Shown: piece after piece, positions 3,495 through 50,710 of the stretch
Position numbering within the stretch: position 1 is the first letter of the stretch
How the letters are laid out: each line of letters begins with the position of its first letter
Made by a program: the position numbers and the translations under genes
Virus record (IMG/VR): IMGVR_UViG_3300025715_000009
Coordinates: 96,001 to 160,000 of that record
Length of the DNA stretch: 64,000 nt
DNA from: a virus
Lineage: Duplodnaviria > Caudoviricetes
Strand: one strand, 5' to 3'
Notes under the pieces: model-generated
What the model saw: the letters and a program-made list of their open reading frames with translations, nothing else
Database searches by the model: none
What the model was told of the DNA's origin: nothing

Positions 3495-3779
3495 ATGGAA
3501 ATATATAAACTTTTATTAGATAATGCTTTTTTAGGAAATGATATTTTTAAACAAGAAATGAATGGTGAACTATTCGATTATTTATCTAATATGTTAGATC
3601 AAGATTATCAAGCCACATATGTTAATGACGTTTCTTTAATTGATGGAAAATTAGTTTTTCAATTACTTGTCAATGATTTTACTCAAACAAAAAGTTGGAA
3701 TACCGATCGTGATCCGTGGATCGAAATAATATTTGATCTTAAAAAAGAAAAGTTTATTATTACAGGCATACAACAATGA
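3495..3779 (+). CDS. Hypothetical protein
   Basis: ORF after AAGATAAT; ATGA-coupled to the next gene. Confidence 0.75.
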   Translation: MEIYKLLLDNAFLGNDIFKQEMNGELFDYLSNMLDQDYQATYVNDVSLIDGKLVFQLLVNDFTQTKSWNTDRDPWIEIIFDLKKEKFIITGIQQ

Positions 3780-4033
3780 AATATATAGCCAGAGAACAAA
3801 TAAAATATTTATTTGGTAATCCAAAACATGTAATGCAAAATGGTCTATGGTTTAGTGGTTATGAAGACGAAGGTGAATATAAAGTATGGCATGATAATGG
3901 TCAATTACGTTTACACTGTTTTGTAAAAAAACTTAAAAAACATGGTGAATATAAATTATGGAATAAAACTGGTGAATTAATATGTCATAGATTATACAAA
4001 AATGATAAAGTGATCAAGGATTATTTAAAATGA
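3776..4033 (+). CDS. MORN-variant (YwqK-like) repeat protein, copy 1
   Basis: GEYKVWHDNGQL..KKHGEYKLW repeats. Confidence 0.8.
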   Translation: MKYIAREQIKYLFGNPKHVMQNGLWFSGYEDEGEYKVWHDNGQLRLHCFVKKLKKHGEYKLWNKTGELICHRLYKNDKVIKDYLK

Positions 4034-4287
4034 AATATGTAGCAAGAAAACAAATTTATGACTTATTTCTTTCTCCAGAAAACACATTGTCTCATGGTCT
4101 ATGGTTTAGTGGATATGAAGAAGAAGGTGAATATAGAGAATGGTATAAAAATGGTCAATTATCAGAAGTTGCATTTTTTAAAAACGGGATAGCACATGGA
4201 GAATGTAAATTATGGGACAAAGACGGTAATTTAACTAATCATTGGTTGTTTGATAATGGTGAAGTAGTAAGGGATTATTTAGAATGA
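4030..4287 (+). CDS. MORN-variant repeat protein, copy 2
   Basis: GEYREWYKNGQL..FKNG..HGE; tandem paralogue. Confidence 0.8.
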   Translation: MKYVARKQIYDLFLSPENTLSHGLWFSGYEEEGEYREWYKNGQLSEVAFFKNGIAHGECKLWDKDGNLTNHWLFDNGEVVRDYLE

Positions 4288-4541
4288 AATACGTAGCTAG
4301 ACAACAAGTTAAAAAATTATTTAAGAATCCTCTAGAAGCTATGGCTAATGGTTTATGGTTTAGTGGTTATGAGGGTGAAGGTGAATATAAAGTTTGGTAT
4401 AATAACAATAAACTGTTTGTACATTCTTTTTATAAGAATGGTGAATTAGATGGTGAGTTTAAACAATGGTGGAGAAATGGTGAATTTATATATCATAAAT
4501 TATATAAAAATGGTGAAGAAATTAAGGATTATTTGAAATGA
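4284..4541 (+). CDS. MORN-variant repeat protein, copy 3
   Basis: YKNGELDGEFKQW; tandem paralogue. Confidence 0.8.
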   Translation: MKYVARQQVKKLFKNPLEAMANGLWFSGYEGEGEYKVWYNNNKLFVHSFYKNGELDGEFKQWWRNGEFIYHKLYKNGEEIKDYLK

Positions 4542-4801
4542 AATACGTAGCAAGAAAACAACTAAAATCATTATTTAATAATCCTTTCGAAGCCATGGAA
4601 GAAGGCTTATGGTTTAGTGGATATATGGGTGAAGGTGAGTATAAAGAGTGGTATGAAAATGGAAAATTATGGGTACATTGTTTTTATAAAAATGGCAAAA
4701 AAAACGGTGAATATAAAGAATGGTGGAAAGATGAAAATGAACTATATGCACATTTATTATTAAAAAACAATGAAGTGGTTGAAGATTATTTAAATAAATA
4801 G
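4538..4801 (+). CDS. MORN-variant repeat protein, copy 4
   Basis: GEYKEWYENGKL..YKNGKKNGEYKEW; tandem paralogue. Confidence 0.8.
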   Translation: MKYVARKQLKSLFNNPFEAMEEGLWFSGYMGEGEYKEWYENGKLWVHCFYKNGKKNGEYKEWWKDENELYAHLLLKNNEVVEDYLNK

Positions 4802-4816
4802 GACAAGATAATTATT

Positions 4817-6526
4817 ATGCAAATAAAAAATTTTAGTTTATTATTAGAAAGTGGAATAAGAATACCACCAGGAACACACGCAGCAAAAATAGTTCATCAC
4901 CAAGATTTGGATGGTGTTTTTTCTGCTATTGTTGTCTATAATCAACTTATCAAACAAGGTATAAATCCAAGAAACATAACAACTCATTGGATACAATATA
5001 GCGAAGATGATAGCTCCTATATTCAAAAATTGAAAAAATCAAAAGGTCAAATGGTAGCATTAGTAGATTTTGCTAAACTACCAGAAGGAGCAGTTAAACC
5101 AGATTTTTGGACAGATCATCATCAATCAACAAAACATATATCTGCAGGCGGGGGAAAAGTAGGAGCAACAGAATTTAAAAGCGATACAGATCATTTAGTT
5201 TTATTACATACAGAAAATTTAGTTGATAGATCAACTGTAGAAGTTATCAATCGTATAGATAGCGCATCTTTTACTAATATAGAAGATATTCTTACTTTAA
5301 AAAAGGATTTTAAAGAGAAGGGTAGATTAGAGCGTTTAGCAATTATTTGTAATGCATTATTAGTAGAATCAGGCATACTGAACGATAATACTTTATTGGA
5401 AAGTTTTATAAAATCAACTAAACCATCAATTGTTTCTTTTTATGTTAATATTCTTGAGTATAATAGATTAAATGAAATACAATTACAAGCAATAAAAGAA
5501 TTGAAAAAACCAGAACCTGACTGGGATTTAGTTGAGAAAGCACGTCGAGCTATGCCAAATTTAAAAGCAAAAAAACGTATATATAAAGGTGCTTCTGTAA
5601 ATGAAGGAGCTATTGAAGATTATCAGGAATTAAAAGACCTAAGATCTAAAAAAAGAACACCAAAAGAAGAAGAACGATACCAAGAATTAGTAAATAAACC
5701 AATAGAGAAGATAAAACATGCAAGACATAGTGCATTACAAAAAGAAAAGGGAAAAGATACGACATTTGAAAAAAGAGGATCAACTCTTATCCAAAATAAT
5801 CCAAGATTACAGAGATATATTTGGACACAGTTGAACACAGCTGGCATAAAATATCCATTTGTTATTAAACGCTATCCGACGTTTATACAAGTAGCAGTTA
5901 ATCCAGATTTGCCAGATGAAATACGTGATAAAATTGATTTAGGAGCAATATCCAACTTAGTGATGAAACAAATAAGATCCAAATTTGAAAATAAGTATAA
6001 TGCATGGGCATTTGATATTATTGAAGGAGATAGTGGTGGACATAAGGGTATAACCAACATCTCATCTCTCGGAACATTAGGTATAATGAATAAGGCAGAT
6101 CGTGATGAGTTAAAATATTTCGAGTCATTAGAAGGAAGAATCAAAGCATTAAAGAAAATCAACAAAGACATGAGTGATGAAGATAAAGAAAAATTATCTC
6201 AAGCTCAAGAAATGTTAGATAAAAAAGAAATACAAGAAGTAGATTATGATAAATTAAAAAAATTGTTATCTTCACCAATGAGAAGATTAATGCCACAGCA
6301 TTTTGCCAAGATGCAAGAATTAAAAGATAAAAAAGCAGAAAGAGCATTAGAAAGAAAGAAAATAATGGATGAAATTGTTGAAGAATTTATTAATCAATTT
6401 GAATTACGCTTTGGTGCATCCAAACAAGAACCAGTTATGAGTAAAAATAAAAATGTAAAACTAACTGGTGGCAAAAAAGAATATGAGTTTGAATCATTAA
6501 ATACCATCTTGGATGAATTATTGTGA
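4817..6526 (+). CDS. DHH-family phosphoesterase-like protein
   Basis: HHQDLDG, LVDF, TDHH and later SGGHKG motifs of DHH/DHHA1. Confidence 0.75.
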   Translation: MQIKNFSLLLESGIRIPPGTHAAKIVHHQDLDGVFSAIVVYNQLIKQGINPRNITTHWIQYSEDDSSYIQKLKKSKGQMVALVDFAKLPEGAVKPDFWTDHHQSTKHISAGGGKVGATEFKSDTDHLVLLHTENLVDRSTVEVINRIDSASFTNIEDILTLKKDFKEKGRLERLAIICNALLVESGILNDNTLLESFIKSTKPSIVSFYVNILEYNRLNEIQLQAIKELKKPEPDWDLVEKARRAMPNLKAKKRIYKGASVNEGAIEDYQELKDLRSKKRTPKEEERYQELVNKPIEKIKHARHSALQKEKGKDTTFEKRGSTLIQNNPRLQRYIWTQLNTAGIKYPFVIKRYPTFIQVAVNPDLPDEIRDKIDLGAISNLVMKQIRSKFENKYNAWAFDIIEGDSGGHKGITNISSLGTLGIMNKADRDELKYFESLEGRIKALKKINKDMSDEDKEKLSQAQEMLDKKEIQEVDYDKLKKLLSSPMRRLMPQHFAKMQELKDKKAERALERKKIMDEIVEEFINQFELRFGASKQEPVMSKNKNVKLTGGKKEYEFESLNTILDELL

Positions 6527-6786
6527 TAAGTTTTAAAGATTTAGAAATAAACAATGTTTACTCATTTTTAATGAATAAAGAGTTTTCATTGTTTTATGTG
6601 AAAAATATAAATAAAAAAAATGTAAATACAATGTTTATAAAATATCATAAAAATAAATTTGATATATATGATGAAACACTTGATCCTAATGAATTTAATC
6701 ATCCAAGTTTAATATTCAAAAGACATGAAAAAACAGATTTTAAAATTATAATAAAGATGATTTTCAACCCACAGGGATTTATATGA
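6523..6786 (+). CDS. Small hypothetical protein with C-terminal IIKMIF tag
   Basis: Coupled ORF in + strand operon. Confidence 0.7.
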   Translation: MISFKDLEINNVYSFLMNKEFSLFYVKNINKKNVNTMFIKYHKNKFDIYDETLDPNEFNHPSLIFKRHEKTDFKIIIKMIFNPQGFI

Positions 6787-7025
6787 TATATTTTGATGAA
6801 AAAGAATTATTACCAATAATTAGATATACTTTTATTTTTACAAAATCAGAAAGTATAGGTGATATATGTTTTATTGATTATTATTCTGGTAGATATGATT
6901 TATTTAGACAAAAAAATATTGCTTTTAAAAATACAATATCTTATAAATATGCCGAAGAAGCAACTGATGCTCACTTACAAAAATTGATTAGAATAGTGTT
7001 TCATCCACATATGAGGCTAAAATGA
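6783..7025 (+). CDS. Small hypothetical protein with C-terminal LIRIVF tag
   Basis: ATGA-coupled ORF. Confidence 0.7.
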   Translation: MIYFDEKELLPIIRYTFIFTKSESIGDICFIDYYSGRYDLFRQKNIAFKNTISYKYAEEATDAHLQKLIRIVFHPHMRLK

Positions 7026-8223: not shown

Positions 8224-8276
8224 TATATACTTTTTCTAAACTCTATAGTAGTAATATATTTATTCTATATTTATAC

Positions 8277-8333
8277 GTTCACATGGTGAACTCCAGAGTT
8301 CATGTAGTGAACAGCCCTGTTCATTTAATAAAC
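8277..8333. repeat. Three tandem palindromic 15-bp elements GTTCAY-N3-RTRAAC at 21-bp period
   Basis: gttcacatggtgaac (8277), gttcatgtagtgaac (8298), gttcatttaataaac (8319). The junctions are also palindromic (tgaactccagagttca, tgaacagccctgttca). Next to an AT-rich tract. Confidence 0.8.
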
Positions 8334-8336
8334 AGC

Positions 8337-8708
8337 CTAACTTAGTAATGATTTAGCAAACATTACTAATGTCTCATCATTAATTGGGTGGAATTTAAAA
8401 TCAGTATATTCTTTTTGAGATAGTTTAAACCATTCAATATAATCCTGTGGATAGGCAAGAAAATAGGCCATTTCATCTTCTTTTAGAATAGATGGGACAG
8501 CAATTCCACACCCCCAATATCCTTGGAAATTAGGATCACTTTCTCTTGGACCTATATTATCCAACTCATAAGAAACGCATCCATCATGATGCCTATAGCC
8601 TGCTTTTACTGTTCCATTATACCAACCATTATGTTTTTCAATATAAACAACAATTCTATCGCCTATATTGAAATGATCAAATGGTCTTTCATAGGGTAGA
8701 ACAATCAT
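8337..8708 (-). CDS. SH3-like hypothetical protein, C-terminal AKSLL tag
   Basis: FNIGDRIVVY..GTV beta-barrel pattern. Confidence 0.7.
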   Translation of the reverse strand: MIVLPYERPFDHFNIGDRIVVYIEKHNGWYNGTVKAGYRHHDGCVSYELDNIGPRESDPNFQGYWGCGIAVPSILKEDEMAYFLAYPQDYIEWFKLSQKEYTDFKFHPINDETLVMFAKSLLS

Positions 8709-14720: not shown

Positions 14721-14990
14721 ATGTACATGCTAAGAATCAATTATTCAGGGGCTCCTCTTTTGTTCGAGGTGGAAATAGGTAAAGATACAGCCACTATTAT
14801 AAAGGAGTTGTCCAATTACTTTAAAAAAAGGTATGAGTCTACACAAGAATTTAAAAAACAATGGCTCATCTCCTCTACTACAAACATACCCAAGACAACT
14901 GACTTTGGTCATTTATTATACTCACAAGATTTAGCAATCTTACAAGCGCTCATCATCAAATATGTGTTTAATGATTTAAAGATTACTTAA
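14721..14990 (+). CDS. Small hypothetical protein with C-terminal IIKYVF tag; lone + strand gene with its own AAGATAAT motif
   Basis: AAGATAAT ends 3 nt before the ATG. Confidence 0.7.
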   Translation: MYMLRINYSGAPLLFEVEIGKDTATIIKELSNYFKKRYESTQEFKKQWLISSTTNIPKTTDFGHLLYSQDLAILQALIIKYVFNDLKIT

Positions 14991-15225: not shown

Positions 15226-15534
15226 TTATACTCCTTCAAGATTATCAATTACTACTAAAATTGTTGCTGGATTTACGCCAGTTTTTAACAATTTTCGCGC
15301 TTTTTCTAAATAAGAAAAATGTGATCCTCCAGTCCAATCATGAACACCATCATGAATTTCATAATACCATCCACACTCATCTGTGTGGTTATAATGACAT
15401 AATTTAGCATGTAGAGAAAATGCTAATAGATATTCAGGACAAAGAGATTCAATATCATGAGCTTCTTTTTTAAGTTTTTCTAATTCTTTTTGTTTTTCAT
15501 TAATCTCTTGTTGTAATTTTTCCATATAATTCAT
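15226..15534 (-). CDS. Hypothetical protein, His/Cys metal motif
   Basis: LHAKLCHYNHTDECGWYYE. Confidence 0.7.
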   Translation of the reverse strand: MNYMEKLQQEINEKQKELEKLKKEAHDIESLCPEYLLAFSLHAKLCHYNHTDECGWYYEIHDGVHDWTGGSHFSYLEKARKLLKTGVNPATILVVIDNLEGV

Positions 15535-16500: not shown

Positions 16501-16861
16501 TATTCCTCTCCTGCTTTAAAATTATATACAGGTCGCATAGTAAGATGAATATCTACCGTATACTTAATATATTCTTTTATCTTTTCAGGATCTTTGTAAG
16601 CCATAGGAGACCCATCAAAAATTGAAGTTGAAATGTAAGAAGACTAAACATCCCTCCTATAATACCAATTAAAGAAAATATAACAATAATAATTATTAAG
16701 CTACCCATTATTCCTCTCCTGCTTTAAAATTATAAACAGGTCGCATAGTAAGATGAATATCTACAGTGTCCTTAATATATTCTTTGATCTTTTCAGGGTC
16801 TTTGTAAGCCATAGGAGACTCATCAAGAGTTGAAGTTGAAACACAAGAAGACCAAACCTCC
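16471..16861. repeat. Diverged tandem duplication (~180 bp, period 208) of the rtcB 3' end plus the start of the downstream gene
   Basis: 16471-16653 aligns with 16679-16861 with scattered substitutions. Confidence 0.9.
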
Positions 16862-26992: not shown

Positions 26993-27387
26993 AATTCTTC
27001 AAATAAATATTTTATAGGATAATGATAAGCTACATCTGTCATGCCTGCTTCAATTTGTAAAACAGGATAAATAAATAATATTGATAATTCTCTTAATCCT
27101 CTTATTTTACCAAAAGGAATTTCTTCTAAAGAAAAAAGTTTATGGTGGCCTATTTTATGCTTACCCATATAATCAGTAGTATATTCATTAGAATTATATT
27201 CTATGTGAAAATTTATATCCAAAAAAGATAATTCCCAAACTGCTTTAACATCATAATTTAATATTTCATGATGTTCAATTTCATGTGGTTTGCCTAATAT
27301 TTTTACCATTTTAGTATATGGGATGTTAATATTAGTTATACTCATTACGAGACCAGATTTTGTTTGTTTTTTAAATAAAGAAATCAT
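26989..27387 (-). CDS. Hypothetical protein, C-terminal IKYLF tag
   Basis: AAGATAAT ends 2 nt before the ATG. Confidence 0.65.
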   Translation of the reverse strand: MISLFKKQTKSGLVMSITNINIPYTKMVKILGKPHEIEHHEILNYDVKAVWELSFLDINFHIEYNSNEYTTDYMGKHKIGHHKLFSLEEIPFGKIRGLRELSILFIYPVLQIEAGMTDVAYHYPIKYLFEEL

Positions 27388-29627: not shown

Positions 29628-29909
29628 TTAAAATAATTGTTCAAAAATACTTTTTTTTGCTTCATCAAATGATTCATATATGTGTTTTGGTTTAACAAAC
29701 CAAAAAGAATGATTATCAGTAGGATCTAATTTTTTATTTTTTATAATTTCTTTACTTGCAGAAAAATATGAATAATAAATATAAATCATACCAACTCTTA
29801 TTTTTATTGCATAAGGATCATTTATATAATTAATATAATGTTTTTCTGTAGATCCAAAAATAATTTCAAATTCATCATCAATTTTAGTTACTTCACATAT
29901 ATAAACCAT
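29628..29909 (-). CDS. Small hypothetical protein, C-terminal IFEQLF tag
   Basis: ORF. Confidence 0.65.
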   Translation of the reverse strand: MVYICEVTKIDDEFEIIFGSTEKHYINYINDPYAIKIRVGMIYIYYSYFSASKEIIKNKKLDPTDNHSFWFVKPKHIYESFDEAKKSIFEQLF

Positions 29910-30857: not shown

Positions 30858-31132
30858 TATTCCTTCTTAAAAATAAATTTTACTATTATTCTTTTTTCCA
30901 TTCCTTCAACTAAAGAAAATCCTTCAACTGAATAATCTCGTGAACTAACGACAAAAGTTATTTGGTCAAATAATTTTTTCATAAGAATAGCATCTGCATT
31001 TTCATCTGTATATACTACTTTTCCACCTACTTTTTCTTTATATCCTTGTTTTATATCTAATACGAGATAAAGATTAAGATTGGCTAATGATGTTCCATGC
31101 CTATAAACTTGACCAATTTGAAATTTACTCAT
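30857..31132 (-). CDS. SH3-like small protein, C-terminal IIVKFIF tag
   Basis: KFQIGQVY start. Confidence 0.65.
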   Translation of the reverse strand: MSKFQIGQVYRHGTSLANLNLYLVLDIKQGYKEKVGGKVVYTDENADAILMKKLFDQITFVVSSRDYSVEGFSLVEGMEKRIIVKFIFKKE

Positions 31133-32867
31133 TTATTTTTTTATCTATTTTTTCCATTATAGAATCTACACTTACTTTTTCTAGTAAAACTTCATTAAGT
31201 GTTTTTGTTTCTTCTTCATTAGAAATTCTACCACCAACAGTAAGTGAACTTTGATTCCAAGAATATTGATTATTAAATGTAAACCAAACATCTTTATAAC
31301 AATTATTATATCCGCCATTTTTTGCCAATGGTTTTTTTAAAATTGGTGTTTTACTATCTTCATAATAACAATTATGAACTAAATTCCCATTAACAAAATA
31401 ATTATTAAATGGTTCACAATGCATATTCCAAACAGTTGTTCCATTTTTATATTTTGAAGAATTCATTGCATTTATTGGTGTAATTTTTTTTATTTTATTT
31501 CCATTCATTATAAATTGATTAATTTCTTTTATGTCATTTGGTTCTATAATATTATTATAATGATTATCATATAAAACGAATAAGGTTTTAAAACCTTTTT
31601 CTTCAAATATTTCTTTTCTTTCTTTTTTATATTCTTCCCAATTTCTTAAATTATTCATCCATTCACATGAAACTTCAATTAATTTATTTTCATCTTTTAC
31701 TTTAAAATCTGGATTTTTTGATCCTAATTTAGTTCTAATCCAAAATTTAGCATTACCAAAAAAATCTACTGGTAAATTATTATATTTGCAATATTCAATA
31801 AATTTCTTTTCAGCTCCAGAAACATGATTATTTTCTCTATTCCCATAATTTTTCTCTACTATTTCTGGTCTTTTCATACAATTGTTTTCTGATAATTTTT
31901 TTCTTACATCTTCTCGCGTCCAAATATTGTTTAATTTTTGTCTAATTGATAATTTTTCATATGTCCCATTTTCTTTTAATGTTTGAGTAGTTTTTATATG
32001 AGCTATCTTTCTCCAAAGATCAGATCTATGATCATGTAACATATGATATAATACACCTGGCTTAATATAATATGGCTCATCACCAACAACTAATTCGTCC
32101 GTTTTTTTCCATTTTCCTTTGACATAAAAAGGATGTTCTCCTGTAGCATATAGTGGATCACCATTTTCAAATTCTATTTTAAAAATATTAGTTGCATATC
32201 TATTTCCTAATTTTTTAATTTGTGTCAATGCTGGTTTTTGATTTTCTTCATCATAACCAATTACCCAATCACCATCTTTTAATTTAGATATTCTTTTACT
32301 TCCATTAGGAGTTTGAATTAATGTTCTTTTATTATCTACAATACACCAATCACATACTCTCCAATCTCCATCACTTGCTAAATAGATATTGTATGCATGT
32401 CCACCTTGAGGAGCAGTTGGTGATGCTTGAACATAACCAGCAGCAACTTTTGTTCTCCAGGTAGGAACACCTGCTGCTACACATAAGGATGTAATTAATA
32501 TAGCTCCATCTTCACAATCACCATGTTGAGATTGTAATGTCTCAAATGGAAATTGCCAAAATTCTGGTGTTTGATTTAAATCATCATCATACTTATATGT
32601 TAAAAATTTTACTACCCATTTTTGGACTTCCCAAGCAGTATCATCTGGATTAGATTTTTGTAGTTTGTATTTTTTTACTATTTCATTTAATATTTCATCA
32701 TTGGTAGAAATAAAGTTTTTTACATCTACATTTATTCTATCTTTTTTACCTCTTAATGCTCTACCTGAATAGATAATTGGTGCTTTTGGCCATTTATTGT
32801 TATAATGCTCTTCATTTAATAATCCCATTTTCTTTATCTCCTTTTTCTTAAATAAATTAAAAAACAT
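31125..32867 (-). CDS. Transglutaminase-like cysteine protease, intein-interrupted
   Basis: WQFPFETL..GDCED, GHAY, DW catalytic triad. Confidence 0.85.
   Translation of the reverse strand: MFFNLFKKKEIKKMGLLNEEHYNNKWPKAPIIYSGRALRGKKDRINVDVKNFISTNDEILNEIVKKYKLQKSNPDDTAWEVQKWVVKFLTYKYDDDLNQTPEFWQFPFETLQSQHGDCEDGAILITSLCVAAGVPTWRTKVAAGYVQASPTAPQGGHAYNIYLASDGDWRVCDWCIVDNKRTLIQTPNGSKRISKLKDGDWVIGYDEENQKPALTQIKKLGNRYATNIFKIEFENGDPLYATGEHPFYVKGKWKKTDELVVGDEPYYIKPGVLYHMLHDHRSDLWRKIAHIKTTQTLKENGTYEKLSIRQKLNNIWTREDVRKKLSENNCMKRPEIVEKNYGNRENNHVSGAEKKFIEYCKYNNLPVDFFGNAKFWIRTKLGSKNPDFKVKDENKLIEVSCEWMNNLRNWEEYKKERKEIFEEKGFKTLFVLYDNHYNNIIEPNDIKEINQFIMNGNKIKKITPINAMNSSKYKNGTTVWNMHCEPFNNYFVNGNLVHNCYYEDSKTPILKKPLAKNGGYNNCYKDVWFTFNNQYSWNQSSLTVGGRISNEEETKTLNEVLLEKVSVDSIMEKIDKKINE
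31371..32345 (-). mobile_element. Intein (325 aa) with PD-(D/E)xK/Vsr-like endonuclease
   Basis: CIVDNK start, ATGEHPF block B, NPDF..LIEV, NYFVNGNLVHN|C end. Confidence 0.9.
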
Positions 32868-32869: not shown

Positions 32870-33193
32870 TTATTTTACTCCTTTAGGAGGATATTTTTTG
32901 TTTTTTCTAAAATCAAAAATACATGCTATCATTCTATGTCTTGTTAAATCTACTTTTGCCCACTCTTTTTTTAATAATTTTAATTTTTCATTATTAATAG
33001 AACATATATTACCAGTCCCTATATCTGTATATATTCTTTGTAGATTTTCATAATCTTGATATATATGAAGAACTGTTGTATTATTTACATTTTTAAAAAA
33101 TCGTCCTAAATTCCAATAAGTTTTACCTACTTTCAAATAAATAATTTCATTATCTTGAGTAAATGCATTTTCTGTAAAAACAAAATCATTCAT
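32870..33193 (-). CDS. Hypothetical protein, C-terminal MIACIF tag
   Basis: AAGATAAT ends 3 nt before the ATG. Confidence 0.65.
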   Translation of the reverse strand: MNDFVFTENAFTQDNEIIYLKVGKTYWNLGRFFKNVNNTTVLHIYQDYENLQRIYTDIGTGNICSINNEKLKLLKKEWAKVDLTRHRMIACIFDFRKNKKYPPKGVK

Positions 33194-39545: not shown

Positions 39546-39947
39546 CTATACTCTTTTTACAACCTGAATATCATAATTCATAGATGATGATAATAAATAA
39601 CCTGTTGCTATAATATCACCTTTTTTAATATTACATAATGCATCGGTTGTATTCCAAAGAGTTATATTAATGTAATCATTTGTTTTTGAAGATATGACTT
39701 GTTGTAGGACCATTATCCCATTAGATCTTGCTAAACTTTCATTGTTCATAATCATAAAAATATGATTTTCATCAACTGATAATTTAAATTCTAATGAAAC
39801 TATTTTTCTTTCTTTGGGTCTTAAAATTACGTCTTGAATTGCATATAAATCAACATTATTACACCCAAATCTTTTAGATGGAGTATATTTCATAAAATCA
39901 AGAGTATATTGTGGATTTATTTCTATTTTTAAATTTTCTAAAGACAT
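39546..39947 (-). CDS. dut: dUTPase-like protein, degenerate
   Basis: DLYA, LRPKERKIV, SLA..GI, IKKGDIIA fold motifs; catalytic motifs III and V altered or missing. Confidence 0.7.
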   Translation of the reverse strand: MSLENLKIEINPQYTLDFMKYTPSKRFGCNNVDLYAIQDVILRPKERKIVSLEFKLSVDENHIFMIMNNESLARSNGIMVLQQVISSKTNDYINITLWNTTDALCNIKKGDIIATGYLLSSSMNYDIQVVKRV

Positions 39948-40010
39948 ATTTATATTACCTTTATTATATAGTATTAAATATGCATTTTAGAGGTAATATT
40001 TTATGTAATG

Positions 40011-40640
40011 TTATGATATTTTCATATTCTCTTTGGCTGTTGTCAAAAAGTTAAATATGAATTCTTCTTTTTTCATATCACCAGCTTTTTCTAATGGTTT
40101 TAACTTTGGAGCTCTTGATGTATTGCCATTAGAATTATATGCTCCCATCCCATTAACCCATTCAATTAGGTTGTTTCTATCTCTTAAAGATAAATCGCCC
40201 CAAGCATTTTTTATCAACTCTTCTGCTATCATAAAATTACCACCAGAAACAGCATTTCTAATATGAAGAAGAATATCTCTATCTTCACCTTCAATAACAC
40301 TCTCCATAGCATTTGATCTATCAGCTATTGGAAAATATGATTGACCGATTGTTGTCATAATAGTTCCATCTTTTTTATTTCTTTCTATACCACCACCCAT
40401 ACTATGAATTAATTCTTCTGCTAATGCTTTTTTTTGTTCTACTATTCCAGATCCATACTTTTCTTTATTCTCATTAAACAATTTATCTAAGGTTGATCCA
40501 TCTTCACCCATAAGTTGAACTAAATTGTTGTAATAAGTTGATCTTTTCTGCCCAGTAGAAAGAATTATTTTAGCTTCATTAATTTTGTCTTTTTTTTGAG
40601 CTGATAACCAATCACTAAAAAGTTTTGATATTCTTGACAT
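40011..40640 (-). CDS. Hypothetical (possible virion) protein
   Basis: ORF with INE motif. Confidence 0.7.
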   Translation of the reverse strand: MSRISKLFSDWLSAQKKDKINEAKIILSTGQKRSTYYNNLVQLMGEDGSTLDKLFNENKEKYGSGIVEQKKALAEELIHSMGGGIERNKKDGTIMTTIGQSYFPIADRSNAMESVIEGEDRDILLHIRNAVSGGNFMIAEELIKNAWGDLSLRDRNNLIEWVNGMGAYNSNGNTSRAPKLKPLEKAGDMKKEEFIFNFLTTAKENMKIS

Positions 40641-40653
40641 ATTATACCTCTTT

Positions 40654-40899
40654 CTATTTATAATTTATATATGACCAAGAAATTTTATTATCATCTAATA
40701 TATCCAAAAATTCATTCACTCTCATAGAACGAACTTGAAAAATAATAAAATCTCCATTTACTATCTTATCATTTATATGAAAATCATATACTGATTTTGA
40801 CCAAAAAATGTCTTTAAATTTCTGCAATTCTTCTAAAGGAATTGCTATGCTTGTTGTTTGAGCAGTTGGAACTATTGTTTGTTGTTCTACATGGCTCAT
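40654..40899 (-). CDS. Small hypothetical protein
   Basis: ORF. Confidence 0.65.
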   Translation of the reverse strand: MSHVEQQTIVPTAQTTSIAIPLEELQKFKDIFWSKSVYDFHINDKIVNGDFIIFQVRSMRVNEFLDILDDNKISWSYINYK

Positions 40900-41168
40900 T
40901 TTTCTATTATAAATGAATTATTGATTAATGTATCTAAATCCATTGGGTCTTTTTGTTTTGAGGTTAAAATAACAAAGGGTTCATCTTCCATTATTTTAAT
41001 TGCTTCATTCAAATCATCTTTTCTTATGTTGAAACCTTTTGTTTTTAAAATGCCAAATAATTTTTTAGAATCCCAAGATTCAGCTATACATTCACCAATG
41101 TTATTATTTATCTCATCCCAAAAACGAACCTGATAACCACTTTCTTCAACAAGCATTATAAATTTCAT
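40896..41168 (-). CDS. Small hypothetical protein
   Basis: ORF. Confidence 0.65.
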   Translation of the reverse strand: MKFIMLVEESGYQVRFWDEINNNIGECIAESWDSKKLFGILKTKGFNIRKDDLNEAIKIMEDEPFVILTSKQKDPMDLDTLINNSFIIEK

Positions 41169-41515
41169 TTGCTTTCTCCGTACTTTTTTGTAACATAATT
41201 TTTGAATCCTCTACCTGCTCCAACTGCAACAACTAAAGGAGCCCAAATATAAGCAAAAACTTCAAGGAAAGAAACAAACTTAACCATATCAAAAGCATCC
41301 CAAAACGATCCAACAACACCCATTGCAGCAAAAACTATATAACTTACATTAATAATTAATTTAGATATTGATTCTGATTTTGCAGATGGTGGGGTTGGAG
41401 ATGCTTCTATTTCTACTTGGCTTGATTGTTCTCTCAATCTTTGGGCTTGTTCTGATAAAGCATCAGCTCTAGCTCGCATTTGTTCTGGAGTAAGTGATTC
41501 TGTAGATTTTGGCAT
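41165..41515 (-). CDS. Holin-like 2-TM membrane protein
   Basis: Two C-terminal TM segments and a basic tail. Confidence 0.5.
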   Translation of the reverse strand: MPKSTESLTPEQMRARADALSEQAQRLREQSSQVEIEASPTPPSAKSESISKLIINVSYIVFAAMGVVGSFWDAFDMVKFVSFLEVFAYIWAPLVVAVGAGRGFKNYVTKKYGESK

Positions 41516-41520
41516 ATATT

Positions 41521-41561
41521 TCCTCCATTTATATCTTTAATATATCTTTATAAATGGAGGA
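41521..41561 (-). promoter_or_regulatory. 13-bp hairpin occluding the SD of the holin-like gene; loop carries tandem AAGATA
   Basis: TCCTCCATTTATA-aagatatattaaaga-TATAAATGGAGGA-aatat-ATG. Confidence 0.7.
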
Positions 41562-41567
41562 GTAAAG

Positions 41568-41798
41568 TTATGATTGTAGTAATTTTTCTTTAGCATTACT
41601 TGAAGTAATTGCATCAACTACTTCATCTGGCAAAAAGATTTCATTCTTTTCAGCAAATGGCGAATCTACATTATAATGTAATCTGGTAATCCACCAACCA
41701 CCATCTGTTTTAAAATACTCAAATTGATAGATGTCTTTTTCAGTTCTTTTTTCAGAGATATATATTTTTTTATTGTCTTCAATTGTCTTATAACTCAT
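41568..41798 (-). CDS. Small hypothetical protein
   Basis: GCATAT ends 8 nt before the ATG. Confidence 0.65.
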   Translation of the reverse strand: MSYKTIEDNKKIYISEKRTEKDIYQFEYFKTDGGWWITRLHYNVDSPFAEKNEIFLPDEVVDAITSSNAKEKLLQS

Positions 41799-41812
41799 AT
41801 ATTAAAATATGC

Positions 41813-42706
41813 CTATTGTGGTGGCCATTGTACCATTTTAGACGCTGAAACTTCTTCTGGACCCTTTGTGCCAGTAGATATTCTATACATTTCTAATGCC
41901 CAATGTCCATGAGTTTGTTCATATCCAGTAACATCTGGGACACAAATCTGAGCTCTCCACATAAAAAAACTTGGAGATGCATTATCAGAAGCTGATTCTG
42001 TATTTAATTCATCACCCATTGGGGCTGATCCTTCAAAGTTATAATGGGCAAGCCATTGAATAAATGCAATCCATTTATTATTTGTAGGGAGTGTTCGTTT
42101 GGCTACAGTTAAATCCTCTTGAGAAAACTTTTCTATATAACCTGTTCCTGGAGGAGCTACAACAAAGAAATTCATAAATGATCCTTTAGGAGCATTATAA
42201 TAAAACAATGTTCCTTCTTTTATATACACCCAGTCACAAAATCTCCAATCAATTGTTTGCATTTTATATCCAGCAGGAGCATGTTCATTGTCCCATCTAA
42301 GATCATCTGCAGGAGCTGAAAAATCAAATGTAAATGGTGTTCCTTTCCCGACTTCACCTGTTGTTAGATCATCAGCAGCACCTTGAAAAATTGCATCCCA
42401 ATCTGTTTTTCTTGAATCTGATCTTATAACCCATCTTCCCAAGTTATCAACTTCTGTTGGTCGTTGAATCTTTCTAATTAAATCTATTGCTTCAGATTTA
42501 GATAAATCTCTTATACCATCATTTACCTGATAAGATTCTGTTCCAAGCGATATAGCATCTAACAAATCATCTGAAGCTGATAATTCAATAAGTCTAACTT
42601 CATTTCCACCTATATCTAATGCACCATTTGCTGGTATAACTATATCTCCAAGATCTGCTATTACTAAATTTTGATCAGTATAATTTTTAATTATTCTTTG
42701 TGCCAT
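41813..42706 (-). CDS. Virion structural protein (shared IIKN..DLG N-terminal module)
   Basis: N-terminus similar to 42716, 47802 and 50772. Confidence 0.6.
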   Translation of the reverse strand: MAQRIIKNYTDQNLVIADLGDIVIPANGALDIGGNEVRLIELSASDDLLDAISLGTESYQVNDGIRDLSKSEAIDLIRKIQRPTEVDNLGRWVIRSDSRKTDWDAIFQGAADDLTTGEVGKGTPFTFDFSAPADDLRWDNEHAPAGYKMQTIDWRFCDWVYIKEGTLFYYNAPKGSFMNFFVVAPPGTGYIEKFSQEDLTVAKRTLPTNNKWIAFIQWLAHYNFEGSAPMGDELNTESASDNASPSFFMWRAQICVPDVTGYEQTHGHWALEMYRISTGTKGPEEVSASKMVQWPPQ

Positions 42707-42715
42707 ATTTTACTC

Positions 42716-44608
42716 CTATAATCTTCTTCTTACGTATAATGTTATACATGGTTTTTTAGGCTTTGTATTACCAGAGGCTGATAAATATATATTAATATCA
42801 TCTTCGGCATTAAAATCTATATTTAACCAATCAGCGTTTAAATGTTCATCCCACCCTTGCTGATCCCAATATACTGTTTCTACAACTTGGTCGTTAATTC
42901 TAATTTCAACACTTGCATTTGGAGAGTTTTGACATCTTCCACTAATTCCAATTATTACTCCATTCCACGGCATTGAAAAACCAGTAAGAGAGTTAGTTTG
43001 AGCAGATCCATAATACATATATCCAGATGCACTATTATTATTGTTAGAAAACTGTGCAGCCATAGATGAAAAACTAACCCATTTTGCTCTCACAGGATCT
43101 CTAAACCACATTTCTTGATCTTTGAAACAAATCTCTCCACCTGCAAGCCATTGATTTGGTGTATAATCTATCTCTTTTAATTTTAATGGAGCAAATCCCC
43201 CAGAAGCTCTTAATTCAACTGGACCATAATCAACATCAACAATTCTGCCATTGCCCCAATCCCCATATGCTTCATCTAACGTTGATGCTCCACCGCCTAA
43301 ACCAGAATGTGTGTGGAGCCCATCGGCATTACTTCCATTTGTCAATTGTTCTAACTCAGAACCAGTAACATCAGTTGATGAATCATTTGAACTTATTGTT
43401 GCATAAGTAATTTGAGTTAATTTACAATCAACTTGCTGTTTAGTATAATATCTATCATCATGTGTATGAGATAATAGAGAATATTTATTATCTGATTCGC
43501 TTTCCGTATAATATCTATCATCGTGATTATGACTTATATTAGATTTATTAGATAATAAAGTATCAGCCTCTGTTTCTGTATAATAGCGATTATCTAACTG
43601 CCCATTATTAAGCTGTGTCTTAGTATAATAGTTATTGTTTATTTCTATTTCAGTGTAATATCTATCATCATGATTATGGGTAGATGGAGTAAATGTTGCA
43701 GGCTTATCAACAATATCTGCCCATAAATGATTATGATTAAAATCAGTAATATCTGCTTTAATATGAGTATGAGAAAGTGGAGAAGCGCCTACGTCGCTGT
43801 AATTTAATGTTACAACACCTGTTTTTCCATTAACACTTGTCACAGCATCAAGTGGAGTTAATAGTTCTTGCCATGAAGATATGATGCTATAATCAGAAGA
43901 TTTTAATATAAATGATTTATTAATATCTGTTCTAATTGCAATATCACCAATTTCTGCCGCGTTTATATTTAACATGGCAGATTCACTATTAACAACAAAA
44001 GTATCTGTTATAGCAGTTGCTGGTATTTGATTAACATAAATCTTACCAGAAGAATCTAAAGAAGCAAGTCCATTAATTTGGCCTTTTTTAGAGTTTATTT
44101 GTGTATTAATTGTAGTGTTGATATCTGTAATATCATTTGATACGTGTGTGTGATTTGATGGAAGAAAAGTTTCAGGCTTATTTGTAATATCTGCCCATAA
44201 ATGATCATGTTCAAAATCAGTAATATTTGTTTTAATATGAGTATGATTATTTAAAGAATATATAACATCAGATTGTTCTTTTGTATAATACTTATCATCA
44301 TGGTTGTGATCAAAATCAGATATTTCTGTTCTAATATGTAAGTGTTGTTTTTCTGCAAAAATATCTTCTGCAATTGGCTGTAAAAATACTCTTGATTCAT
44401 TTACAGTTAAATCTTTTGATCCATTATTAACTATTATTGAATTAGATTCTATTGTAGTGAAAAGTTCTTCATTCATACAAAATCTTGATAATTCAGAACT
44501 ATCAATTTGAACGTTTTCATTTTTTAGAATAGTTAATCCTAATGAGCTGATTGTGATATCATTATTTGTATTATTTTTTAATATAATCGTCTTCATTATT
44601 TTCTCCAC
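42716..44608 (-). CDS. Fibre protein with HxH/HDDRYYTE repeats
   Basis: H-x-H repeats, VTSVNGKTG, C-terminal module shared with 44596 and 50772. Confidence 0.75.
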   Translation of the reverse strand: MEKIMKTIILKNNTNNDITISSLGLTILKNENVQIDSSELSRFCMNEELFTTIESNSIIVNNGSKDLTVNESRVFLQPIAEDIFAEKQHLHIRTEISDFDHNHDDKYYTKEQSDVIYSLNNHTHIKTNITDFEHDHLWADITNKPETFLPSNHTHVSNDITDINTTINTQINSKKGQINGLASLDSSGKIYVNQIPATAITDTFVVNSESAMLNINAAEIGDIAIRTDINKSFILKSSDYSIISSWQELLTPLDAVTSVNGKTGVVTLNYSDVGASPLSHTHIKADITDFNHNHLWADIVDKPATFTPSTHNHDDRYYTEIEINNNYYTKTQLNNGQLDNRYYTETEADTLLSNKSNISHNHDDRYYTESESDNKYSLLSHTHDDRYYTKQQVDCKLTQITYATISSNDSSTDVTGSELEQLTNGSNADGLHTHSGLGGGASTLDEAYGDWGNGRIVDVDYGPVELRASGGFAPLKLKEIDYTPNQWLAGGEICFKDQEMWFRDPVRAKWVSFSSMAAQFSNNNNSASGYMYYGSAQTNSLTGFSMPWNGVIIGISGRCQNSPNASVEIRINDQVVETVYWDQQGWDEHLNADWLNIDFNAEDDINIYLSASGNTKPKKPCITLYVRRRL

Positions 44609-47470
44609 GCAAACTCTAATACTGATACCGCTTCTTGCAATGATGATCCTGCTGCATTTACATATATAGATATAACATCATTTGCTGAAAAGTTTATATT
44701 CAATGATGAATTAAATACTCCACCAACAATGCCCATAGTATAAGCAGAAGATTCATTAATGCGAATATCAACATTTTTATTAACACTTGTATTAGATTGT
44801 AAAGTAGCACTTATTATTGTTCCATTTTTAGCCATTCTATACCCAGTAGTAGATGTAGGACATTGTCCAACTGGGCGTAGATTTGTTCCATCTGAAAAAC
44901 CATCTTTTCCAAATAATAATGTCTTAGATGGAGTAAGCCATTTTTCTCTACCACCGTCATAAATATATAATTCATTATCAATAACAGCAATTTGACCTGC
45001 TGCTAAATTAGTAGTAGGCGTAGTTGAACGATTAGTTAATTCTAATGGTGAGTTTGTATTTGTAGATTCTATTTTAACTGGAGCTGTTGATATATTAATT
45101 GTCTTGCCTGCATCATATGCGTCTTGTAAAGTTGAACTTATATTTGCAGTTTTATCATTTAATTCTTCTAATGCATCTTGAACATTGTCTGATGTTAATC
45201 CTACTATTTGATCAATTCCAATATATCCAGCACCAGATGTTGAATTCAACTCTGTCTCTGTGTAATAACGATTATCTAATTGACCATTATTTAATTCTGT
45301 TTTGGTATAATAATTATTATTTATCTCTGTCTCTGTATAATATCTATTATCTAATTGTCCATTGTTTAATTCTGTTTCAGTATAATATCTATTATCTAAT
45401 TGACCATTATCAAGCTGTACTTTTGTATAATATCCAGCTAAAAATCCATCAACTTGTAATTTTGTATATATGTTATTATTTATCTCTGTTTCAGTATAGT
45501 AGCGATCATCATGTGTATGTCCGACATCTGATTTATTACTTAATAAATTATTTACTTCTGTCTCTGTATAATATCTATCATCATGAATATGTCCAACATC
45601 TGATTTATTACTTAATAAATTATTTATTTCAGTTTCAGTATAGTAACGATCATCATGGGTGTGAGTAGATAAAGAATAATTGCTTAATAAGGCATTTATT
45701 TCTGTTTCAGTATAGTAGCGATTATCTAATTGCCCATTGTTTAATTCTGTTTCAGTATAGTAACGATCATCATGATTATGGGTAGATGGAGTGAATGTTG
45801 TAGGCTTATTGGTTAAATTATCCCAATGAACTGAAGATAGCCCAGATGTTTGTAGCTCTGTTTCTGTATAATATCTATCATCATGCGTGTGAGTAATATC
45901 TGATTTATTAGAAAGTAAAGTATCAACTTCCGTTTCTGTATAGTAGCGATCATCGTGAATATGGGTTAATAAAGAATATCTCGCGTCACTTTCACTTTCT
46001 GTATAATAAAGATCATCATGATCATGAACAAGAGGTGAAAATAAAGTATCACATTCTGTTTTAGTATAAACTTCAGTTTTATTGTAATAATTATCTAACA
46101 AATCATCTATTTCAGTTTCAGTATAATATCTATCATCATGCGCGTGAGTAGATAAAGAATAATTATTTAATAATGTATCTACTTCTGTTTCAGTATAATA
46201 TCTATCATCATGTGTATGTCCTAATGTTGATATTTCTATTAAAGATGATCCAATTCCTATTTTCCATTTATCATCCGTTTCATCAAATCTTAAAGCTGCA
46301 TCATCTAATGTTCCTCTATCTATTAAAAGACCAGAATATCCATCTGATATACCTGCTCCTGTCTCACCTGAATTAAGAATTATTTCATTATCACTGACAG
46401 TTAAATCTGTTGAATTGATTGTTGTCAATGTTCCTTGAATTGTTACATCACCAGAAAATGTTTTATTTCCAGTGATAGTTTCATTTCCAGCAATATGAAC
46501 ATAATCACTCTCATTAAAATTTGTTATATTAGATTTTGTATGAGTATGATTAGATAGTGAAAAACTTGTTGAATCATATACTGATGATGCTATTTTTGAT
46601 CCATCATATATTAAAAACTTGTTGCTTGTATAAGCAGTGTTATTTGTTCCACCTCTTGCTATAACTAATGTTCCTGAAGTTATATTTGCTGCAGAGTGAT
46701 TGTGAGATGCTGAAGCAAACGATGAATTAGAATATGATGTTGATGCAAGCTTTGTTCCATCAAACGCAATAAATCTTGCTGATGTATAAGTGGTGTTGTT
46801 TGTTCCACCTCTAACAATTGGTAATATACCAGAAGTAATATCATCAGCAGAATGCGTGTGAATAGCTTGAGCAAAAGAAGAGATATTAACTGCTGCATCA
46901 GATAAACTACCATCTGATGTCTGAATTACAAAATTATTAACAACAGGAGAAGATACCTTATTTATTTTACTACTTAAAAAGACATCAGATCCTGTTTCAG
47001 TATAATAGCGATTATCTAATTGACCACTGTTTAATTCAGTTTCTGTATAATAACGATCATCGTGGATGTGAGTAGATAGAGAATAGTTGTTTAATAAAGT
47101 ATCAATTTCAGTTTCAGTATAATATCTATCATCATGGATGTGTCCAACATCTGATTTATTATCTAACAGGTCGTTAATCTCTGTTTCTGTGTAATATCTA
47201 TTATCATGTGTATGGGTGATGTCTGATTTGTTAGAAAGTAGAGTATCAACTTCAGTTTCTGTATAATAGCGATTATCTAATTGCCCATTATTTAATTCTA
47301 TCTTTGTATATATATTAGTATCTATTTCTGTTTCTGTATAATATCTGTCATCATGGTTATGAGCCGATGGAGTAAAGGTTGCTGGAACATTTGTTAAATT
47401 GTCCCAATGAACTAAGGATGATCCTGATGTTGATAATTCATTTTTTCTATAATACCAAGTATCATGATGA
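43420..47470 (-). repeat. Intragenic coding repeats HxHDDRYYTETE / GQLDNRYYTETE
   Basis: Visible as recurring 'tttcagtatagtagcgatcatc'-type units on the + strand. Confidence 0.9.
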
Positions 47471-47787: not shown

Positions 47788-47801
47788 TCTTATTCCCCAT
47801 A

Positions 47802-48308: not shown

Positions 48309-48727
48309 ACAAACTTTCCATCTTTTATTATATATAAATCACTATTAAAATGATCAATGTATATATTTTCTATTTTATAGTTTTTTACACTTACAACTGT
48401 TTGGAACATTTCTGTCTCTTCATCAACTTCACCACTTAATCCTACATGAAATTGAAAATTACCATTTACAATATCCATTAAATTATCTGTATCCCAATAG
48501 TCATAATGCCAATTTTTCTTATTATAATTATCACCATAAAGTATAAAATTATGACCGCGTATTGTTTTTTCTTTCATGTATACTTTATTCATTATTTGTT
48601 GCATTGAATAGTGTATAGGAAAATAAGTTAACCAATCAGGGTCTAAATCTTGATAACCTTTTAAATTACCAGATAATTCGCCAGAGAAAATCAAATCTAA
48701 TATGATTTTTATATATTTATATCTCAT
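48299..48727 (-). CDS. Hypothetical protein, N-terminal IILDLIF tag
   Basis: ORF. Confidence 0.65.
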   Translation of the reverse strand: MRYKYIKIILDLIFSGELSGNLKGYQDLDPDWLTYFPIHYSMQQIMNKVYMKEKTIRGHNFILYGDNYNKKNWHYDYWDTDNLMDIVNGNFQFHVGLSGEVDEETEMFQTVVSVKNYKIENIYIDHFNSDLYIIKDGKFVWK

Positions 48728-49010
48728 ATAGATCCATGTCCTTGGGATGACGAGAGATATAATTTTTTATATAACCTTTCATCCATGTCTCTCGTCTTTG
48801 TTTGTGAAAATCTTTTTCGGCTTTTTCTGCAAATTTTTCAACTTCATCATTTGTAGTTGTGTGAACAACATCAGACGAAAAATGTATATCTTGTATTTCT
48901 TTGGGTGTTTTCTTTGCTCCCCAAATTTTCTTTAACATTTCTTGTGGTATATTCTTAAAATATATGCTATCTCTTTCACTTGTTCTTGTGAATCCAGGAT
49001 TTGTTGTCAT
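48717..49010 (-). CDS. Hypothetical protein
   Basis: ORF. Confidence 0.65.
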   Translation of the reverse strand: MTTNPGFTRTSERDSIYFKNIPQEMLKKIWGAKKTPKEIQDIHFSSDVVHTTTNDEVEKFAEKAEKDFHKQRRETWMKGYIKNYISRHPKDMDLYEI

Positions 49011-49456
49011 TAAATAACCTCTTTTATTATTTTTCTATAATTTGGATCTATTTTTTTATATTCAACTTCAATTGAATCATTTTCAAGACAATATCCACCA
49101 AAATGATAACAAATTAATCGCATTATTACAGTTGATAGTCCCCATTTTCCTATGGATATTCTCAATCCTTTTGTTTTATCTGGTAGTTTATTATTTTTAA
49201 TATGTAAATAATCATCTGTATCTGTATAATTCCACCCTTCTTGCTTTGCTTTTTGTTTTGCCTTAATAGAATTAATTTCCATATTTTGCATCGTCAATTT
49301 ACGATCTTCACCATAAAAATTAAAATTTATATAGTGTATAAACCTATCACCTATATCTACTTTAGATTGACTTGCTTTATTATCAAATATGTAAATAAAT
49401 TTATATAATGAATCGAGTTTTAATTCAGGACAATATAATATTGTATTTACACTCAT
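49010..49456 (-). CDS. Hypothetical protein
   Basis: ORF ending KIIKEVI. Confidence 0.65.
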   Translation of the reverse strand: MSVNTILYCPELKLDSLYKFIYIFDNKASQSKVDIGDRFIHYINFNFYGEDRKLTMQNMEINSIKAKQKAKQEGWNYTDTDDYLHIKNNKLPDKTKGLRISIGKWGLSTVIMRLICYHFGGYCLENDSIEVEYKKIDPNYRKIIKEVI

Positions 49457-50409
49457 GATCTATCCCTAAATAATTTTCTAATAACTATGTGATAATTATC
49501 CTCTACTGATGCATAAAATTTAGCAAAAAAATTATCCATATTTGACAACATATTTTCTTGATTTTTCTTCCAAGATACATAATTTTTAACTTCTTTTTGA
49601 TCACCATATCCACCTGTTGCTGTATTTGGTTCTGCTAAAATAAATCTTAACCATGCACCATCACTCATTGTGCCATATGACACAAGTAAATAACCAAGAC
49701 TATTTGCTCTTGGAATTATTTTATCAAATAATTTTTGTATTTCTTTTACTTGATGTGTAAATATTTTTCTATCAGTAATATTTTCATCCATATCCTCTCT
49801 TGGGTGGGCTTCAAATGATATATATTTTTCATTTTTATTAAAAATCAATAATATATTTTTCTTTTTTGCAAATTCTATAAGAGGCGTAAAAATATTCTTC
49901 TTTTTTTCATTCTTCTCATGTTTATATAAAACGTCCCATCTATTGCTTTTTTCTTCTTTTGATTTAACCAACAAATCCCCTATTTTATTTATAGAAGAGA
50001 CTATTGGGTTGAGAACATCACTAACAGATTGTCTAAGATCTCCTTCACTACTTTTAACTGTATTATAATATACATCGCTTTTAATTTTTATTTTTGTGCC
50101 TGTAATATAAAAATATATATCTAATGGTATTTCTTTATATGATTTATATTCACAATCTTTAAACTCTATTTTGTTTGTATTTGCTGAATCAAACCATTTG
50201 TTTTTAGTATTATGAATATCATCTTTTCTAAATGTATCTATTGCACCTTGTACTTGATGATATGGTATTTTCCATCCGCTTTTCTCAAGTAAATAAAATA
50301 ATGCACGAGCAAATTTAACTGGCTGTTCTTGAATCACATCCAAGGCACTTTTATCGAGTATTCTCTCTATTTGCTTTGTTCTTGATTCTGTTAGTTTATC
50401 CAAGATCAT
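49453..50409 (-). CDS. Hypothetical protein (LTE leader, C-terminal VIRKLF tag)
   Basis: 318-aa ORF. Confidence 0.7.
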   Translation of the reverse strand: MILDKLTESRTKQIERILDKSALDVIQEQPVKFARALFYLLEKSGWKIPYHQVQGAIDTFRKDDIHNTKNKWFDSANTNKIEFKDCEYKSYKEIPLDIYFYITGTKIKIKSDVYYNTVKSSEGDLRQSVSDVLNPIVSSINKIGDLLVKSKEEKSNRWDVLYKHEKNEKKKNIFTPLIEFAKKKNILLIFNKNEKYISFEAHPREDMDENITDRKIFTHQVKEIQKLFDKIIPRANSLGYLLVSYGTMSDGAWLRFILAEPNTATGGYGDQKEVKNYVSWKKNQENMLSNMDNFFAKFYASVEDNYHIVIRKLFRDRS

Positions 50410-50710
50410 TATGTCCTTTAGAAAAATTTATTTTATCTATTTCAAAAATTCTTTTAATGAAAAATCTTAATCTATTTTGTTTTTCTTCAATTTTCCAATC
50501 TTTGACAGTATTAAGTATTTGTTTTTTATCAGACCAAGTATAAATAAATTCTTTTTGAAAACAAACTTCATCATCTGCAATATAAAATCTTCTTAAATTC
50601 ATTGAATTAGAGGTTATTGATTTAATATATAAACAATTGTATATATATATTGTATTACCATCATAGGAATAAAAAAATGTCATCCCAGGTTTAATATCAT
50701 CAAACTTCAT
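50396..50710 (-). CDS. SH3-like small protein, C-terminal FIKRIF tag
   Basis: MKFDDIKPG start. Confidence 0.65.
   Translation of the reverse strand: MKFDDIKPGMTFFYSYDGNTIYIYNCLYIKSITSNSMNLRRFYIADDEVCFQKEFIYTWSDKKQILNTVKDWKIEEKQNRLRFFIKRIFEIDKINFSKGHNDLG

Follow-up and report, generated by a model that had tools for sequence, protein, structure and literature searches.

A lineage-specific C-terminal motif on dissimilar small proteins of a jumbo myophage, possibly a shared docking helix

In bacterial microcompartments, encapsulation peptides form short amphipathic helices on one end of cargo proteins that are otherwise unrelated; a linker of low conservation connects peptide and cargo, and the peptides accompany shell genes. 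In T-even phages, the diverse small internal proteins (IPI-III in T4) sit behind one short tag, the N-terminal capsid-targeting sequence (CTS) of about 10 residues, which is removed at a gp21 site (PMC9026906). T4 also tethers unrelated proteins of known role (gp43, gp33 and gp55) to one hub through a short, interchangeable hydrophobic C-terminal epitope that follows an unstructured linker (PMC2988020). In Escherichia coli, the sequence EEKKGFLKRLF of MinD is listed as a lipid-binding helix (PMC3189734), and work cited in PMC8155659 presents the MinD membrane-targeting sequence as a transplantable C-terminal helix. Here we describe tag A, a C-terminal motif found on 47 predicted proteins of a jumbo myophage known from one virus record (IMGVR_UViG_3300025715_000009; 388,268 base pairs (bp), 29.7% GC, rated 98% complete). 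The motif was first noticed in a stretch of 64,000 nucleotides (nt), bases 96,001-160,000 of the record and hereafter the window, whose gene products include a tail sheath, a T4-type large terminase, an intein-bearing RtcB and a CCA-adding enzyme. A preliminary description of the window had proposed that some 18 unrelated proteins share a terminal peptide, at either end, that loads late-expressed cargo onto one hub such as the capsid interior. Coordinates preceded by G000 refer to the whole record and all others, unless a relative is named, to the window.

About 610 genes were called in the record by a codon-usage score. The 505 proteins encoded outside the window, unseen when tag A was proposed, formed an independent test set, in which the 23 C-terminal residues of each protein were scored for a moderate form of the pattern, hh[KRDEQ]x[ILVAC]F. 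This form matched 41 tails, while within-protein shuffles gave 3.5 matches and all internal positions 26 (odds ratio (OR) 13.5, p = 1e-23), and the strict pattern matched 9 tails against 0.4 in shuffles. With L, I or Y as its last residue, or with its order reversed, the moderate pattern gave only 7-11 tail matches in this set. Genome-wide, there are 47 carriers, about 8% of the proteome, compared with 4.2 ± 1.9 (maximum 11) when only the tails were shuffled, and of 360 permuted orders of its residue classes the true one ranked first. When about 67,000 patterns in a reduced alphabet were enumerated without bias, h+.hF came out on top at C-termini (45 of 610 tails versus 17 of 3,350 internal chunks, p = 4e-24). 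Further, counts that left out one position at a time showed every motif position to be specific. Position 2 was I in 24 of 32 cases and position 3 was K in 26, D in 10 and E in 4 of 61; position 6 was F in 30 of 70 tails versus 16 of 251 internal matches, which makes F the specific residue. Because shuffles, permutations, enumeration and position counts all agree, the C-terminal motif is real, and its enrichment over shuffles and internal controls is stronger than had been claimed. Carriers approximate the consensus [KR][KR]-x-[IFV]-I-[KD]-x-[IL]-F-[NEK], after which 0-17 residues form a free tail. N, E or K typically comes right after the F, K, R or H stands two residues upstream of the motif in 30 of the 47 carriers, and the helix-capping residues N, P and D are common 4-5 residues upstream.

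Tag A is specific to one phage lineage, in which it is maintained by selection. Codons at the motif match the synonymous usage of the genome and their third positions vary, and the constraint therefore acts on the protein and not on the DNA. Scans of IMG/VR and metagenomes for relatives returned one whole relative, G001, of which 179 kilobases (kb; 63%) were examined and whose terminase is 60% identical to that of this phage, and one 15-kb piece, L022 (JFJP01037321.1). The examined part of G001 encodes 12 carriers where about 2 are expected; nine of them have no BLAST match in this phage, and six lie in one small-gene array. As a control genome we used Bacillus phage G, which has the same GC and I/K/F content and holds 2 carriers against 3.0 expected. 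Tag A is also conserved within families more strongly than the family cores. The best-sampled carrier family has 19 representatives in 1.84 billion proteins, all of 78-97 amino acids (aa), and about 21 true members. In its alignment, the helix residues F75, I76 and F80 are 96% conserved and, with S22 and K2, are the five best-kept of 84 positions, figures that include a neighbouring gene and its representative P0005 although both are probably not true members (z 0.5). F75, I76 and F80 are thus kept above the residues of the strand core. A literature search found no description of the motif.

Three other sources of the pattern were considered and ruled out. A DNA-level signal in gene ends, be it a promoter, a ribosome-binding site or a recombination site, is incompatible with the variable synonymous positions and average codons. 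Local AT-rich tail composition was eliminated by the tail-only shuffles and the permutations. The L/I/Y and reversed controls and phage G likewise exclude a trait that C-terminal helices, or AT-rich jumbo phages, would show in general.

Tag A is carried by 40 of the 258 proteins of 70-130 aa (15%) and by none of the 50 proteins longer than 400 aa; some carriers have 315-318 aa. Searches of all 47 against Pfam and PHROGs returned one receiver domain, one MORN_2 match and one unnamed PHROG family, and the ESM Atlas gave nothing usable for two carriers. The bodies show no detectable relation to one another, in line with the preliminary description: once the helix was removed, iterative hidden Markov model (HMM) searches left 39 of 47 as singletons (43 groups). 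BLAST, iterative HMM, HH profile and shuffle z-score comparisons of the bodies together recovered only three small groups and a MORN-like family, and the body profile of the best-sampled family scored other carriers like non-carriers (9.9 versus 9.5, p = 0.14). Carriers are clustered, with 18 adjacent pairs against 3.7 expected. In 14 of these pairs body similarity is at shuffle level, and the other 4 are demonstrable paralogues. The - strand holds 88% of the called genes, and the minority + strand is enriched in carriers (15 of 73 genes versus 32 of 537 on the - strand). The idea of late-expressed cargo is not supported: carriers are mostly ORFans of 70-130 aa in tandem arrays, enriched on the + strand and weakly linked to the motif AAGATAAT, behind which the preliminary description had placed many of them. 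For that link, 8 of 45 genes directly behind AAGATAAT are carriers versus 39 of 565 others (OR 2.9, p = 0.016).

A second C-terminal motif, tag B, reads x-A-[KR]-x-L-L plus a short tail and occurs genome-wide on 23 small proteins whose bodies are mutually unrelated. Tags A and B have the same geometry and mutually exclusive anchor residues: I..F occurs 32 times, A..L 23 times, I..L twice and A..F once (Fisher p = 8e-13). So strict a pairing is unexpected for generic amphipathicity or lipid binding and expected for specific recognition or for two old lineages. We offer as a speculation, and a rather unlikely one, that the phage has a pair of orthogonal C-terminal address codes, Φ-I-[KD]-x-Φ-F and x-A-K-x-L-L, which direct some 70 small, fast-evolving effectors between them to two different readers. 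Such two-code sorting, if true, would be a form of protein sorting so far undescribed in phages.

The reading that we tentatively prefer, and to which we give somewhat less than an even chance, is that tag A is a shared interaction helix by which unrelated, fast-evolving accessory proteins dock. Tag A would then be a lineage-specific C-terminal amphipathic helix that serves about 47 proteins as a common interaction module, and many small accessory proteins may use it to bind one shared partner of phage or host origin. The enrichment and order specificity, the codon usage, the dissimilar bodies, the conservation within families, in orthologs and in G001, the phage G control and the covariation with tag B all count in its favour. 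The recurrence of the motif on dissimilar small bodies under protein-level selection fits a portable interaction element. Furthermore, the bias on the solvent face across families (position 3, the upstream K/R/H and the N/E/K after F) goes beyond the needs of a helix that only packs against a core. Several results weigh against it. None of the candidates tested as a reader (a sliding clamp, a family-B DNA polymerase, two AAA_5/DUF2201_N gene pairs and the gp21-type protease) proved to be one. The phage has two neighbouring gene pairs of an AAA_5 (dynein/MoxR-like) ATPase and a DUF2201_N putative metallopeptidase (G000:275952-278445 and 282174-285894). Such pairs also occur in phage G, which has no tag, and were not found in the examined 63% of the tag-bearing G001, and so lend no support to a MoxR/vWA reader here. 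No flexible linker precedes the motif, and hydrophobic structural residues lie 6-11 residues upstream of it. One carrier is a CheY-like receiver domain with the motif at the expected helix α5. In the best-sampled family, a turn of 4 residues joins the last strand to the modelled helix (residues 69-82), whose predicted local distance difference test (pLDDT) score of about 90 is what a packed helix would have. The similar sizes and tandem clustering of the carriers are also compatible with common descent. Of the portable docking helix first proposed, a short helix recurring under protein-level selection on dissimilar bodies is supported; its placement at either end, its late cargo and its capsid hub are not, nor is a free docking helix. 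Small ORFans that offer no handle for study make up most of the genes of huge phages, and tag A gives a single experimental entry to dozens of uncharacterised proteins. A reader, if there is one, would act as a hub in the interaction of phage and host, with the tag as its portable targeting device; should the helix instead be a relic of common descent, it shows how far accessory proteins can diverge around one kept element.

Descent from a common ancestor deserves the most weight among the alternatives. It is possible, though doubtful, that the carriers go back to one or a few old families of small proteins, each with a β-rich body and a C-terminal helix, that were duplicated in tandem and whose bodies diverged beyond detection. 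Similarly doubtful is the accompanying proposal that the last helix survives as a core-packing element and not as an address. Forty of the 47 carriers have 70-130 aa and they are strongly clustered in tandem, with the four paralogous pairs among them, and a crude propensity score, in itself weak evidence, rates most of the small bodies as β-leaning. A structural model also counts for this account. AlphaFold, run on the 23-sequence alignment of the best-sampled family, returned five strands and a C-terminal helix containing the motif (pLDDT 89.6, predicted template modelling score 0.78); a run on 6 sequences had been too weak for use (pLDDT 59). In the model, a barrel of five strands and the helix that packs against it form one compact unit, and a free docking helix is not supported in this family, the only one modelled with confidence. 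Fold searches returned only weak SH3/Sm/Tudor/WYL-like barrels (Z up to 5.6, Foldseek E ≥ 0.01), several of them with a terminal helix, and these matches cover residues 1-84. The MORN-like family has an analogous end, V-I-K-D-Y-L, which in one truncated member is replaced by VIKGLF. Set against common descent, the bodies are dissimilar by every comparison made, even between neighbours, and some carriers are proteins of 315-318 aa or a receiver domain. In addition, a wholly changed packing surface should make the helix drift, yet its I and F have changed less than the strand core and its exposed positions are biased.

We regard as unlikely a MinD-type membrane-targeting amphipathic helix that would recruit small proteins of the phage to the host membrane, on its inner face. 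The likeness is close in position, length and pattern (basic, basic, x, Φ-Φ-K-x-Φ-F near the C-terminus), and the E. coli MinD sequence agrees with all of the conserved columns (basic, basic, x, F, L, K, R, L, F). The mean hydrophobic moment is likewise raised in carriers, at 0.43 compared with 0.29 for the background and 0.38 for MinD. However, a neutral or acidic helix is frequent among carriers: the 11-mer has a net charge between -3 and +4, which is zero or negative in 22 of 47, so that no face is consistently cationic, and position 3 is D or E in 14 of 47. Generic lipid binding would also leave unexplained both the covariation of I..F versus A..L and the specificity for F.

Still less probable is the proposal of the preliminary description that tag A loads late cargo into the capsid or onto an ejection scaffold as a C-terminal analogue of the T4 CTS. 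Both are short terminal peptides on small, divergent, fast-evolving phage proteins, for which the T-even internal proteins provide the precedent, and a gp21-type prohead protease is encoded here as well (G000:52696-53151, PF03420 match, E = 5.5e-22). Two carriers and a variant with I for F (49010-49456) lie in the tail/fibre gene block, and the mild excess of carriers behind AAGATAAT would fit. Tag A differs from the CTS in being C-terminal and helical and in having no enriched cleavage site before it: [LIV]xE occurs within 15 aa upstream in 30% of carriers versus 22% of matched controls (p = 0.25). Moreover, most carriers belong to arrays of small genes that lie apart from the structural genes, and the minority strand has more than its share of them. 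Encapsulation peptides differ from tag A in their linker, none being seen here.

It is very improbable that tag A is a sliding-clamp-binding epitope of the T4 type, although both place a hydrophobic C-terminal epitope on unrelated proteins and in T4 that epitope is read by one hub. The D variants of tag A, ILDFIF and LLDDIF, resemble the T4 epitope. In T4, the epitope belongs to three proteins of known role and follows an unstructured linker, whereas here about 47 ORFans have tag A and a linker is absent. No gp45-type or β-type clamp was detected in the 98%-complete record (PF09116, PF02916 and PF02768 gave no match), nor was a family-B DNA polymerase, despite the T4-like terminase and prohead protease, and no large replication protein is tagged (0 of 50 above 400 aa). 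Finally, a chance product of I/K/F-rich composition (8.7% I, 8.7% K and 5.0% F in the proteome) in a 30% GC genome is suggested by the looseness of the 18 original examples, for which h..[ILVAC]F is the sole pattern covering nearly all and is almost generic in an I/K/L/F-rich proteome, but for the C-terminal motif it is refuted, with negligible residual probability, by the tail-only shuffles, the 360 permutations, the independent test set and the composition-matched control genome.

The supposed N-terminal occurrence of the tag reduces to one family of MORN-like paralogues plus chance. N-terminal matches outside this family number 9, against 5.7 ± 2.4 in head-only shuffles (P = 0.11), and those outside the window 4 against 4.8 expected. 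The MORN-like family comprises at least 21 small proteins genome-wide (29 by iterative HMM), which have in common the whole N-terminus (MKYIAREQIKKLFNNPQ...GLWFSGY) and also the C-terminus (V[IV]KDYL). It was not found in the examined 179 kb of G001. Besides the four tandem genes in the window (Table 1), the record holds about 20 further MORN-like genes, for example at G000:15247-15946, 39782-44825, 92036-93415 and 215768-216790.

All 18 peptides originally listed are present in the genes named. They are not strictly terminal: those near the C-terminus stop 0-15 residues short of it, and those near the N-terminus begin at residues 5-20. The consensus first given, [IL][IVL]Kx[ILV]F, fits 3 of the 18, or 4 if R is allowed. 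Within the window, the carriers at 6523, 6783, 29628, 30857, 49453 and 50396 are upheld (Table 1). The ORFan at 6523-6786 has no Pfam or PHROG family, and the carrier that adjoins it at 6783-7025 shows body similarity to it not above shuffles (z 1.5). Homologues show how the motif fares with divergence. The L022 ortholog of 29628-29909 (42% identity) ends in FFKSLFKQ and so retains the motif. A 53%-identity homologue of 49453-50409 keeps IVI[RK]KLF exactly, with the 4 residues past the F changed. A single homologue of 30857-31132 (93% identity) was found among 5.8 billion clustered proteins. Among the doubtful cases, 26989-27387 has no ortholog in L022. The open reading frame (ORF) at 14721-14990 is a lone + strand frame in a 370-bp gap between - strand genes and has a perfect tag A motif near its end. 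Its codon usage is like that of non-coding sequence (-0.011 per codon versus 0.27 ± 0.09 for called small genes).

Table 1. Tag A, tag B and related features in the window (window coordinates).
Feature	Position	Strand	Remark
Tag A helix FKIIIKMIF + 6-aa tail, 87-aa ORFan 6523-6786	6739..6765	+	Strict consensus; motif-HMM score 10.7
Tag A helix QKLIRIVF + 7-aa tail, 80-aa ORFan 6783-7025	6978..7001	+	HMM score 6.2
Tag A helix KSIFEQLF, very end of 93-aa protein 29628-29909	29631..29654	-	Motif kept in L022 ortholog
Tag A helix RIIVKFIF + 3-aa tail, 91-aa ORFan 30857-31132	30869..30892	-	Strict consensus
Tag A helix HIVIRKLF + 4-aa tail, 318-aa protein 49453-50409, tail/fibre gene block	49468..49491	-	Homologue conservation
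Tag A helix RFFIKRIF + 15-aa tail, 104-aa ORFan 50396-50710	50444..50467	-	HMM score 10.0
Doubtful: ALIIKYVF, ORF 14721-14990	14946..14969	+	Strict pattern present; gene status uncertain
Doubtful: partial match HYPIKYLF, end of 26989-27387	27001..27024	-	Y-P at both hydrophobic positions; HMM score 1.7
Doubtful: variant RKIIKEVI (I for F), end of 49010-49456	49013..49036	-	HMM score 2.4
Not a carrier: HRMIACIF in 32870-33193	32915..32938	-	Position 3 uncharged; 14 aa from end; fits no pattern
Chance level: N-terminal KLLLDNAF of 3495-3779	3507..3530	+	Head-only shuffles
Chance level: further N-terminal matches	24285-24308, 30777-30800, 48686-48709	-	Head-only shuffles
Four tandem MORN-like paralogues, N-termini MKY[IV]AR.Q[IVL]K.LF, read earlier as N-terminal tags	3776..4801	+	Family-wide shared ends
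Tag B genes	8337-8708, 15226-15534, 22198-22458, 52590-52826, 53090-53395	all -	

The motif AAGATAAT occurs 117 times in the genome; 40% of the occurrences are intergenic, compared with 7% of the genome. It lies within 60 nt upstream of 45 genes, in some cases merely 3-5 nt before the start codon, and in the window it precedes the starts at 3495, 4817, 21738, 23918, 27387, 33193, 33264, 36407, 50710 and 52538. Intervening sequences were also observed. The RtcB gene (16708-18909, - strand) is split by an intein that also has a weak, sub-threshold C2H2 zinc-finger match, and a transglutaminase-like protein (31125-32867, - strand) is split by a Hint/intein domain. The terminase reading frame of the related piece (L022:2431-5349) is 972 aa long versus 618 aa in this phage, which suggests an insertion such as an intein.

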